DNA of 64,000 nucleotides from positions 14,889 to 78,888 of the forward strand of contig JAKFXT010000015.1 in the NCBI GenBank assembly GCA_021731245.1. The letters are read 5' to 3'. This document shows positions 12,487 through 13,065 of this stretch, piece by piece. The DNA comes from Patescibacteria group bacterium. GTDB taxonomy: Bacteria > Patescibacteriota > Minisyncoccia > Phycocordibacterales > JAKFXT01. Numbering within the stretch: position 1 is the stretch's first letter; each line of letters opens with the position of its first letter. The position numbers were made by a program, and so were the translations under genes. The notes below the pieces were generated by a model, which saw only the letters and a list, made by a program, of their open reading frames with translations, made no database searches and had not been told where the DNA came from.

Positions 12487-12515
12487 TTGACATTAATGAA
12501 GATATTTGTTATAAT
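12487..12515 (+). promoter_or_regulatory. consensus sigma70-type promoter: TTGACA - 17 nt - TATAAT
   Basis: Read directly from the sequence: ttgaca at 12487-92, a 17-nt spacer, tataat at 12510-15. Confidence 0.6.
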
Positions 12516-12564
12516 AAGCAGTGGAGATCTCCCCTTCGGCGAGATCAAATGAAAGAGGTATTCA

Positions 12565-13005
12565 ATGCTCAATCGGAATGTACCACACGGTGGAATTGGC
12601 GTGATTTGGGTCAGGAAGGCCCATATGTTGGGGTTTCAAAATGGTACGACCATGTGTTTCGTACGCCCGGGCGATCGATCTGATCCGGAGAAGGCGAAGG
12701 GTAATCCGATCGGAAAGCCCGTCCCGGTCCGCTTCATCTCGAAGCCGGGCATCCAGGGTCAGGTTGACCCGCAATTCTTTCCGGACGATGGCACCACCAT
12801 CGAACTGACAGCGTGTTTCGCAAAGAAGATTGGCGAGTTGACCGCGGAAGATCTGGTCGGCGCATCTCCCGACTACGGAACACCGGAGCTCGTGAAATAT
12901 CACCTCGCTGTGTTCTACGACATGTCTCCATTGGGGGACGATGACGTGGTGACAGTGTCTCGGATCAAGCATCTTCCGAAGGTGGTTGATTCCGAAGCGG
13001 TCTGA
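12565..13005 (+). CDS. ASCH/PUA-like domain protein (tentative); G+C-rich, foreign-composition gene
   Basis: The ORF is strongly GC-rich with G/C-ending codons, unlike its neighbours. It is preceded by the consensus promoter, a GAUCUC..(UUCG)..GAGAUC 5' hairpin, and an AAGAGG RBS 6 nt before the ATG, and is followed by a strong terminator. The C-terminal half (TIELTACFAKKIGELTAEDL...VVTVSRIKHL) resembles ASCH-domain (YqfB-like) proteins; this family call is tentative. Confidence 0.55.
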   Translation: MLNRNVPHGGIGVIWVRKAHMLGFQNGTTMCFVRPGDRSDPEKAKGNPIGKPVPVRFISKPGIQGQVDPQFFPDDGTTIELTACFAKKIGELTAEDLVGASPDYGTPELVKYHLAVFYDMSPLGDDDVVTVSRIKHLPKVVDSEAV

Positions 13006-13027
13006 AAACGACCATGAGACCATCCTT

Positions 13028-13065
13028 GGCCGCCTGCGGTTATGCAGGCGGCCTTTTCTTTTTGT
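13028..13065 (+). terminator. rho-independent terminator
   Basis: GGCCGCCTGC-ggttat-GCAGGCGGCC (10-bp GC stem) followed by TTTTCTTTTT. Confidence 0.8.

Follow-up and report, generated by a model that had tools for sequence, protein, structure and literature searches.

A 64,000-nucleotide stretch of contig JAKFXT010000015.1 from a Patescibacteria group bacterium, an uncultured and ultra-small organism with an AT-rich genome, was analyzed (hereafter the window; all positions refer to it unless another contig is named). At 12487-13063 of its forward strand lies a compact GC-rich transcription unit, called cassette 1 here, which consists of a promoter, a 5' hairpin, a ribosome-binding site, an open reading frame (ORF) for a 146-aa protein, and a terminator. 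Our reading, to which we give a probability of about 0.55, is that cassette 1 is native and strongly expressed, an insulated monocistronic unit that is actively kept GC-rich, probably at the level of the transcript. That the cassette is native and ancient is very probable from sequence comparison across lineages. An earlier note on this DNA had taken it for a very recent acquisition or an engineered insertion.

The promoter (12487-12515, forward strand) is of the sigma-70 type and matches the consensus at 12 of 12 positions, with TTGACA at 12487-12492, a 17-nt spacer that ends in TGT (an extended -10 element, TGn), and TATAAT at 12510-12515. Chance alone would give 0.02 occurrences of this exact pattern per window, and 2 of 100 shuffles contained a match. 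A perfect TTGACA-17-TATAAT occurs on the forward strand of the window at cassette 1 only, and the 64 kb contain two 12/12 promoters, those of cassette 1 and of cassette 3 described below. Transcription would start at about 12520-12523. A stem-loop in the 5'-untranslated region follows at 12526-12546 of the forward strand (GAUCUCCC paired with GG-GAGAUC, CUUC/UUCG loop, about -11 kcal/mol). By itself this hairpin is not unusual against shuffled sequences (z -0.3); it is supported by the related contig L088 (84% nucleotide identity; L-numbers denote contigs that carry homologues), in which both partners of the A-U pair are gone and the stem is retained. The stem-loop may shield the 5' end of the mRNA. 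The Shine-Dalgarno sequence AAGAGG (12553-12558, forward strand) is read directly 6 nt before the ATG at 12565, a start codon that is backed by the N-terminus MLxRNV, conserved throughout the family. The ORF of 441 nt (12565-13005, forward strand) encodes the 146-aa protein, a member of an uncurated family with an ASCH/PUA-like fold.

The intrinsic terminator (13028-13063, forward strand, -27 kcal/mol) has a 10-11-bp stem dominated by G and C, a short loop, and a T-run; it reads GGCCGCCTGC-GGTTAT-GCAGGCGGCC at 13028-13053, followed by TTTTCTTTTT. It was the top match in a 10-kb scan and would insulate cassette 1 from downstream sequence. Two strict perfect-stem terminators were found in the 64-kb window, those of cassettes 1 and 2. 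Both the promoter, with its hexamers 17 nt apart, and the terminator, a GC hairpin followed by a T-run, are canonical in form. The earlier note had described a stand-alone unit with these five parts, and all of them were found where it had placed them; its remark that the native neighbors lack such signals was also confirmed, the best promoters and the strict terminators of the window being confined to the cassettes. Rfam gave no match to cassette 1 at E ≤ 1, a chance Moco-II match inside a neighboring gene aside, and a scan of the whole window at the gathering thresholds returned one tRNA and nothing else.

The GC content was found to be 0.54-0.62 over 12600-13050, compared with a window mean of 0.362, and the GC-rich stretch spans from just past the -10 element to the terminator. 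The gene of cassette 1 has a GC content of 0.553 and a GC content at third codon positions (GC3) of 0.646. Among 66 crudely called ORFs with a mean GC3 of 0.285, the outliers are this gene, a 173-aa gene (0.672), and a 209-aa gene (0.467), and the 63 other genes range from 0.196 to 0.344. The windowed GC and GC3 profiles bear out the sharp discontinuity that had been claimed, and by overall composition (0.553 versus 0.362) the gene is atypical in the way used to recognize foreign genes.

The antisense frame is also open in the window, as had been remarked, and forms a 169-aa ORF at 12562-13071 on the reverse strand. This ORF is a by-product of GC-rich codons and not a gene. It is open in the window and in L004, it contains stop codons in three of five homologues (L003, L005, and L006), and the codon-position pattern favors the sense frame alone. 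Differences across the homologues amount to 0.52-0.65 at sense third positions and 0.15-0.30 at second positions; since substitutions are concentrated at sense third positions, the sense frame is the gene. The public Logan contig L001 annotates the 169-aa antisense frame (868-1377) in place of the 146-aa gene, and the 146-aa product is missing from the protein collection because the gene caller picked the open antisense frame. In two homologues the start was miscalled by the NCBI/Logan callers, P0014 being 19 aa short and P0002 starting too far upstream, at a GTG. Gene calling has a pitfall here, in GC-rich genes of AT-rich genomes.

At least nine other lineages of the Candidate Phyla Radiation (CPR; Patescibacteria-type uncultured bacteria) have homologues of the ASCH-like gene in the same glycan locus, with protein identities of 36-92%, and all homologues with usable context come from a locus of this kind. 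The lineages are represented by L003, L004/L008, L005/L091, L006/L007, L009, L088, L089, L090, and L094. In all of these except L089 and L094 the ASCH-like gene is located directly upstream of p600, a conserved partner gene described below; in L089 and L094 it is one or two genes off and still beside the CTP-transferase and 2-hydroxyacid dehydrogenase genes. The upstream neighbor of the cassette varies (RNase_T, epimerase, NeuB, GlcN_iso, or Cyclase). No empty site was seen among the related loci recovered that span the site (L003-L009, L088-L091, and L094), and no homologue from a GC-rich host was found among those with context. The identity of the proteins to the window copy is 36-71%, compared with 51-55% for p600, 72-79% for the epimerase, and 83-85% for the CTP-transferase. 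At four-fold degenerate sites, the retention of identity is as low for the cassette as for the flanking genes in the same genome pairs. Neither a synonymous divergence younger than that of the flanks nor a close donor homologue was found; the nearest relative is L088, which has the same GC3 and the same junction with p600. With divergence like that of the flanks, four-fold sites included, nothing indicates that the cassette arrived later than its neighbors.

The borders of cassette 1 carry no direct or inverted repeats. No integrase or transposase was found near it, and the only tRNA of the window is at 55912. There were no PHROG or PADLOC matches at cassette 1. A scan of species-representative genomes with the family pattern gave no match; L009 came from a scan of species-representative genomes with the neighboring CTP-transferase, and scans of metagenome contigs yielded L091 only, which matches the L005 gene. 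The perfect TTGACA-17-TGn-TATAAT promoter is present in five lineages (the window, L004, L009, L090a, and L094), and near-consensus promoters are found in L003 (TAGACA-17-TACAAT) and L006 (TAGACA-17-TACAGT). A promoter-like site and a terminator hairpin accompany all of the stand-alone copies (10 of 10). The hairpins after six of them were folded and gave -21 to -35 kcal/mol, and hairpins also follow the other four.

The GC-richness of the cassette gene persists across these lineages. The GC3 of the gene and of its neighbors was determined to be 0.65 and 0.30 in the window, 0.69 and 0.39 in L003, 0.85 and 0.40 in L004, 0.66 and 0.48 in L006, 0.72 and 0.62 in L005, 0.73 and 0.45 in L089, 0.67 and 0.34 in L094, and 0.89 and 0.57 in L090a; for L009 the gene has a GC content of 0.52 and the flanking DNA one of 0.38. 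The stand-alone copy is GC-richer than its host in all nine cases with a known host (binomial p 0.002), a comparison from which the tenth stand-alone copy, that of L088, was left out as its host is not known. The flanking genes follow the host GC3 from 0.30 to 0.62, and the cassette gene remains at 0.55-0.89. Between the window and L006, L004, L005, L009, and L089, 61 of 193 four-fold sites are identical, with 58.5 expected by chance. Despite this saturation, the GC content at four-fold sites (GC4) of the cassette gene is still 0.55-0.85. Because the four-fold sites are saturated and the flanks have adapted to their hosts over the same divergence, neutral decay of an old transfer would have wiped out the GC signal.

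The L090 contig carries two ASCH-like paralogues (760-1227 and 4483-4905). One of them, L090a, stands alone with a perfect promoter, a strong terminator, and a GC3 of 0.885, and its membership in the family was established by hhalign (probability 99%). The other, L090b, is operonic; it lies 22 nt after a DUF4440 gene and 32 nt before p600, and has neither a promoter nor a terminator of its own. The GC3 of L090b, the sole operonic copy, is 0.404 and falls below that of the host (about 0.57).

Two further units with the same architecture as cassette 1 were found in the window. Cassette 2 (46854-47496, reverse strand) has the promoter TTGACT-17-TATAAT (47496-47468), a 5' hairpin (47455-47438), the Shine-Dalgarno sequence AAGGAG (47431-47426), an ORF for a 173-aa secreted thioredoxin-like protein (47417-46896, reverse strand, GC3 0.67), and a terminator (46877-46854). 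Its syntenic homologue in L092 is 53% identical and has a GC3 of 0.66 in a host with a GC3 of about 0.26; the 5' hairpin is retained there via a change that keeps a U.G pair. Cassette 3 (51305-52092, reverse strand) has the promoter TTGACA-18-TATAAT (52092-52063), a short hairpin near 52044-52031, TAAGGAG at 52016-52010, an ORF for a 209-aa secreted protein of no family (52000-51371, reverse strand, GC3 0.47), and a terminator with an interrupted GC stem near 51348-51318 and a T-run. The syntenic homologue of cassette 3 in L092/L093 is 74% identical, has a GC3 of 0.54, and carries the same perfect promoter. L092/L093 belong to a Patescibacteria metagenome-assembled genome (MAG; GC 0.37) that is syntenic with the window at 44-55 kb, the flanks being 61-88% identical, and the synonymous divergence of cassettes 2 and 3 from L092 is similar to that of the flanks. 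The promoters of the three cassettes are the three best intergenic matches upstream of an ORF in the window (two at 12/12 and one of three at 11/12).

In L092 the cassette 3 homologue (8001-8435 and downstream) stops at codon 144, with the remainder in another frame, a frameshift that reflects either an assembly error or a pseudogene. The window also encodes a 559-aa protein (47537-49216, reverse strand) with a weak N-terminal phosphoribosyltransferase-like match (E 0.037) and a PQQ-type beta-propeller; it is 83% identical in L092. In L089, a 2-hydroxyacid dehydrogenase gene (7410-8405, reverse strand) has a GC3 of 0.74 versus 0.45, an upstream TTGACA, a terminator hairpin, and a folding z of -2.5. 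This outlier indicates that GC-rich stand-alone units extend beyond the three families of the window.

The transcript of cassette 1 (12522-13062) folds 4 standard deviations better than dinucleotide shuffles, hairpins included. Folding was also determined for the coding sequence alone against permutations of synonymous codons that preserve both the protein and the codon usage. The z scores of window cassettes 1, 2, and 3 were determined to be -3.0, -3.8, and -2.4, respectively, and those of 29 native genes of the window range from -2.05 to +1.32 with a mean of -0.21. Other copies of the cassette 1 gene gave -2.9 (L004), -2.4 (L006), -2.5 (L088), -2.8 (L090a), and -1.9 (L094), and in L092 the values are -2.4 for cassette 2 and -3.6 for cassette 3. 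The pooled means are -2.10 for 15 cassette genes and -0.19 for 55 native ones (Mann-Whitney p = 6e-6). A generic effect of GC content on these scores was rejected, as 16 GC-matched native genes (0.42-0.59, from GC-richer relatives) average -0.24. The target of selection, if any, is general foldedness and not one particular fold. Translational selection was rejected as the source of the high GC3, the genes rpsB, tsf, rpmE, and prfA having an ordinary GC3 of 0.26-0.33. An AT-rich ramp at the 5' end was also considered and dropped; the first 45 nt are lower in GC in some copies only, and the pattern is inconsistent.

The sharp step in GC and GC3, the codon usage typical of high-GC organisms, and expression signals that differ from those of the neighboring genes would suit the earlier proposal of a very recent horizontal acquisition from a high-GC donor, which would have brought its own signals and would not yet be ameliorated. 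Individually transferred genes have been reported in Patescibacteria, and most transfers detected in groundwater MAGs ran from Patescibacteria to Patescibacteria (PMC12455944). This proposal is nevertheless very improbable, and the claim is not upheld. The earlier note had itself said that the same segment in distant relatives would refute it, and there the segment is represented by homologues at the equivalent position in at least nine lineages, with none from a GC-rich host among those with context; the synonymous divergence equals that of the flanks, L088 shares both the GC3 and the p600 junction, the promoter is conserved across lineages, and neither an integrase nor a tRNA nor a repeat is present at the borders. 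That the unit was engineered, arose in cloning, or is a chimera of the assembly, for which the textbook E. coli-type parts and a BglII site (AGATCT) inside the 5' hairpin might speak, can be set aside almost entirely. A calculation from base composition shows that chance would place about 20 AGATCT sites in 64 kb at the GC content of the window. The Logan assemblies SRR10388252 and SRR10388253 are 100% identical to 11329-13938 and 11329-12744 of the window, respectively, and jointly cover both junctions, so that the same DNA is present in independent assemblies of two runs; natural homologues that have diverged in sequence and share this architecture were found in many environmental assemblies, and nothing similar to cassette 1 was found in a collection of 72,556 plasmid records or in a phage collection. 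Nor is the unit an integron gene cassette, as it has its own promoter, a plain terminator hairpin with a T-run at its 3' end, and no integrase nearby.

Three other readings do without selection on the GC content of the cassette. An ancient transfer, in which a very GC-rich donor passed the gene to the ancestor of this CPR clade and neutral amelioration has been slow and is still incomplete in every lineage, is unlikely, yet it has points in its favor. The spread of GC3 values (0.85, 0.72, 0.69, 0.66, 0.65, 0.62, and 0.55) could represent stages of decay, polarized changes lean from GC to AT, and the comparison of cassettes 2 and 3 between the window and L092 permits an ancestral GC4 of 0.8-0.9. 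However, the four-fold sites are saturated between most lineages and the flanks have meanwhile come to rest at host GC3 values of 0.30 to 0.62. For a GC4 of 0.65 to be left in a host at 0.27, the ancestral GC4 is calculated to exceed 1, given a joint retention of about 0.1 or less and a loss split roughly equally between both lineages. The AT-ward polarization lies within the expected parsimony bias, and the L090 pair, at 0.885 for the stand-alone and 0.404 for the operonic paralogue, would be left unexplained. If the cassette were instead exchangeable, replaced repeatedly by xenologous alleles of GC-richer CPR relatives, its composition would reflect its donors. The glycan loci are indeed rearranged between lineages, with a varying upstream neighbor; the window cassette is as close to those of L003 and L006 as these two are to each other, unlike p600 or the CTP-transferase; the L009 copy is unusually divergent; the synonymous retention between the window and L003 is 0.20 versus 0.04-0.09 for the flanks; and gene transfers in groundwater MAGs are, as cited above, mostly between Patescibacteria (PMC12455944). 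This too is unlikely, and slightly more so. The anomaly is one-sided, with 9 of 9 stand-alone copies GC-richer than the host, and only one moderately GC-rich host (0.53) was seen. Every replacement would need breakpoints precisely at the borders of the transcript, the adjoining p600 gene being host-like. The surplus of synonymous retention amounts to no more than one to two standard errors, and cassettes 2 and 3 have co-diverged with their flanks. Gene-tree incongruence was not accepted as proof of exchange, as it is mild and nondecisive in both the identity matrices and the four-fold retention. GC-biased gene conversion at a local recombination hot spot, with the GC content itself devoid of function, appears improbable. 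Recombining bacterial genes tend toward higher GC3, the rise at third positions of the cassette gene is about as large for G as for C, and no specific RNA structure is conserved. Set against these points is a rise of +0.2 to +0.45 in GC3 within about 0.5 kb bounded by transcription signals, a shift that to our knowledge far exceeds the gene-conversion effects known in bacteria, and neither the excess of folding over synonymous permutations nor the link to stand-alone expression in L090 would be explained. Ancient transfer, exchange, and gene conversion are all less consistent with the saturated synonymous sites, the one-sided anomaly, and the contrast between the L090 paralogues.

In the native, transcript-maintained unit that we favor, cassette 1 would be a vertically inherited part of the glycan locus of a Paceibacteria/Zambryskibacteria-type CPR member. 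The consensus sigma-70 promoter and extended -10 element, which are seen directly, would drive strong transcription. By analogy with known elements, the 5' stem-loop and the GC-clamp terminator would protect both ends of the RNA and insulate it from the downstream p600 promoter, and the strong Shine-Dalgarno sequence would drive translation of a cytoplasmic 146-aa ASCH/PUA-fold protein. Judged from fold and synteny, this protein may work with the adjacent putative glycosyltransferase or in a CMP-sugar pathway, the likeliest ligand being a cytidine-nucleotide or an N-acyl-sugar. The GC-richness would be stationary, tied to the stand-alone mode of expression, and common to the three cassettes of the window. 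Its likeliest cause would be selection at the transcript level, favoring an mRNA that is compact and strongly folded and therefore lasts longer; that such selection explains the GC-richness is a possibility to which we give somewhat less than even odds.

Several observations weigh against this interpretation. The promoter strength, the start site, the mRNA half-life, and the protein abundance are all inferred, and the ligand of the protein and its link to p600 are read from fold and synteny alone. The polarized substitutions between the window and L088 lean AT-ward (10:4 and 9:3), as slow amelioration would, in a test where GC-rich and saturated outgroups bias parsimony toward GC-to-AT changes. 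The single comparison with L092 allows cassettes 2 and 3 to be decaying from an ancestor at a GC4 of about 0.8-0.9. The folding excess is not clear in L003 (-1.0), L005 (-1.6), L009 (+0.1), and L089 (+1.0). RNAalifold found no conserved structure (consensus -39 kcal/mol, covariation term +2.0), and generic foldedness is hard to separate from a side effect of codon order or from local GC heterogeneity. The genes rpsB, tsf, and rpmE are not GC-rich in the window, and high expression alone thus does not account for the composition. The copies of the cassette are few and phylogenetically non-independent, with one operonic copy as the contrast.

We tentatively propose that AT-rich CPR bacteria of the Paceibacteria type possess a class of stand-alone monocistronic genes that are held 15-25 GC points above the genome by selection on the transcript, over times in which synonymous sites become saturated. 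The class would include the ASCH-fold gene, the secreted thioredoxin-like protein, the secreted 209-aa protein, and the 2-hydroxyacid dehydrogenase of one relative. Those of the window and of its syntenic relative all have a promoter at or near the consensus, a stem-loop at the 5' side, and a GC-clamp terminator, and the dehydrogenase gene has a -35 match and a terminator hairpin. With the same reserve, we suggest that selection in this class acts on the foldedness or stability of the transcript, and not on the protein or by way of transfer. No description of maintained GC-rich stand-alone cassettes was found in the literature searched.

The AlphaFold model of the 146-aa protein, built from a 17-sequence alignment, is confident (pLDDT 85.6) and has the beta-barrel of the ASCH/PUA-like fold. 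An ASCH-like fold is thus likely, and the earlier suggestion of an ASCH/PUA-like product is supported at this level. The sequence family is not covered by curated models. Pfam PF04266 (ASCH) does not match the window protein at E ≤ 1 or any of 73 members of the broader family at E ≤ 0.01, although one distant HIT-fusion protein reaches it at E 0.004, below the cutoff. No Pfam or NCBIfam model matches the 146-aa protein or any of 72 other members, PHROGs and PADLOC have no match to the protein, and profile searches of the PDB found no ASCH chain. There are 16 close homologues (41-92% identity), and the full profile search returned 141 cluster representatives. The residues R34, G36, D37, R38, R56, D74, G76, K87, D96, D103, and H113 are invariant in the family. 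The ASCH motif G-x-K-x-x-[E/T]-x-R is not conserved; the family has G27-x-[T/I]29-x-x-x32-x-R34, in which the Gly and the invariant Arg alone are retained. This register relative to G19-R-K21-T-I-T24-I-R26 of YqfB was set by hand, as hhalign left the segment unaligned.

The closest known proteins are those of the ASCH domain superfamily, above all E. coli YqfB, an N4-acetylcytidine amidohydrolase (PDB 9kyf/1te7), along with EF3133/DUF984 (1t62), a Lactobacillus ASCH protein (3s9x), and a Zymomonas ASCH protein (5guq). YqfB uses a Thr-Lys-Glu catalytic triad with an Arg oxyanion hole (Lys21, Thr24, Glu74, and Arg26); replacement of Lys21, Thr24, or Arg26 by alanine abolishes the activity, and the Glu74Ala mutant is 100- to 1000-fold less active (PMC6972931). 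Of this set the family keeps the Arg (R34) and possibly the acid (D103, roughly corresponding to Glu74) in an alignment of low confidence (hhalign E 0.026), whereas the Lys and Thr are replaced by variable, noncatalytic residues. With the Lys/Thr pair absent, a YqfB-type N4-acylcytidine amidohydrolase was set aside. The family also differs from YqfB in being about 40 aa longer and in residing in a glycan locus instead of nucleoside catabolism. Distant members are fused to shikimate-dehydrogenase-like (six proteins), shikimate kinase, and HIT domains (P0048, P0049, P0057, P0068, P0092, P0095, P0051, and P0142), and these fusions hint at small-molecule or nucleotide chemistry. From the model and the gene context, the 146-aa protein may bind or modify a cytidine-nucleotide or N-acyl-sugar intermediate of the glycan pathway.

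The surface-glycan locus around cassette 1 contains adh_short, CTP_transf_3, epimerase, Glucosamine_iso, Wzx flippase, and Wzy_C-TPR genes, to which the loci of relatives add NeuB, Inositol_P, and polysaccharide deacetylase (Polysacc_deac). The immediate neighbors of the cassette encode an RNase_T-like exonuclease and a DUF4440 protein. The nearest relatives of the CTP-transferase (83-87% identity) are found in three MAGs, labeled Candidatus Paceibacterota, Candidatus Zambryskibacteria, and an unclassified "bacterium", and the cassette 3 relative is annotated as "Patescibacteria group bacterium", which places the window in a CPR genome. The conserved partner gene p600 (13622-15406, forward strand) encodes a protein of about 590 aa that is a putative glycosyltransferase by synteny and by weak NCBIfam matches below the cutoff (BFO_1060 family glycosyltransferase, 1.6e-5; surf_polysacc, 0.0018). 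The genomic context is like that of nonulosonic-acid or CMP-sugar surface-glycan loci, with their CMP-sugar synthetase, NeuB-type synthase, Wzx flippase, and Wzy_C polymerase/ligase; we know of no such locus for which an ASCH-fold protein or a member of the p600 family has been described. As judged from gene order, the uncurated ASCH-fold family is consistently linked in CPR bacteria to a CMP-sugar locus and to this putative glycosyltransferase of about 590 aa.

Between cassette 1 and p600 lies the DUF4440 gene (13160-13516, forward strand; Pfam DUF4440, 2e-16), which has a host-like GC content. It is bracketed by a direct duplication of about 70 bp that comprises the promoter and start of p600 (13068-13137 and 13583-13651; 37 nt at 89% and 30 nt at 70%). 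The upstream copy (13068-13140, forward strand), a direct repeat of 13583-13651, consists of a relic p600 promoter (ACATTGACCG...TAGTCT) and a relic of the p600 start, which has left an ORF of 10 codons at 13108-13140. In L088 the cassette terminator runs directly into that promoter and p600, and in L003 and L090 a DUF4440 gene is found upstream of the cassette. From these alignments, the relic copy is taken to mark the ancestral junction of cassette, terminator, and p600, and the recent insertion at this site looks like DUF4440 and not the GC-rich cassette.

Farther downstream, a promoter TTGACT-16-TGn-TATAAT (11/12) heads a 300-nt intergenic region that extends from the Wzy_C/TPR gene to the next ORF (19194-19485, forward strand). 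The RNA of 19228-19485 folds at -88 kcal/mol, 6 standard deviations better than dinucleotide shuffles (0 of 200), and has no Rfam match. Either a structured RNA that is not yet annotated or a long structured leader may be encoded here.

Cassette 1 also resembles known systems of other kinds. It shares with alien genes and genomic islands a GC and GC3 far from the genome mean, sharp borders, and its own expression signals, but differs from them in being syntenic across deep lineages, in having synonymous sites as old as those of its flanks, in a composition that does not converge on the host, and in lacking mobility genes and repeats. Stable and abundant monocistronic mRNAs with a 5'-terminal stem-loop and a strong terminator are exemplified by the ompA and lpp transcripts of E. 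coli and by S-layer gene transcripts; the stabilizing stem-loop of the ompA type lies within about 2-4 nt of the real 5' end and prolongs the half-life of the mRNA. Cassette 1 is like these in its consensus or near-consensus promoter, a stem-loop near the inferred 5' end, a strong Shine-Dalgarno sequence, a short message, and a strong terminator. In the ompA, lpp, and S-layer transcripts the coding region is not a compositional island, whereas the whole cassette transcript exceeds the genome by about 20 points in GC content and shows excess folding.

Genes that stand out by composition and carry their own expression signals are routinely taken for recent transfers, and in these 64 kb that heuristic is wrong three times. 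The conserved promoter and terminators may serve as parts for the emerging genetics of Patescibacteria. If selection on the transcript is indeed the cause, the cassettes would offer a compact natural system for the long-standing question of whether and why selection favors synonymous G and C in bacteria, each with built-in controls in its flanking genes and, in one genome, an operonic paralogue. They would then provide a clear example from nature of selection that favors synonymous GC in particular genes against the mutational bias of the genome.

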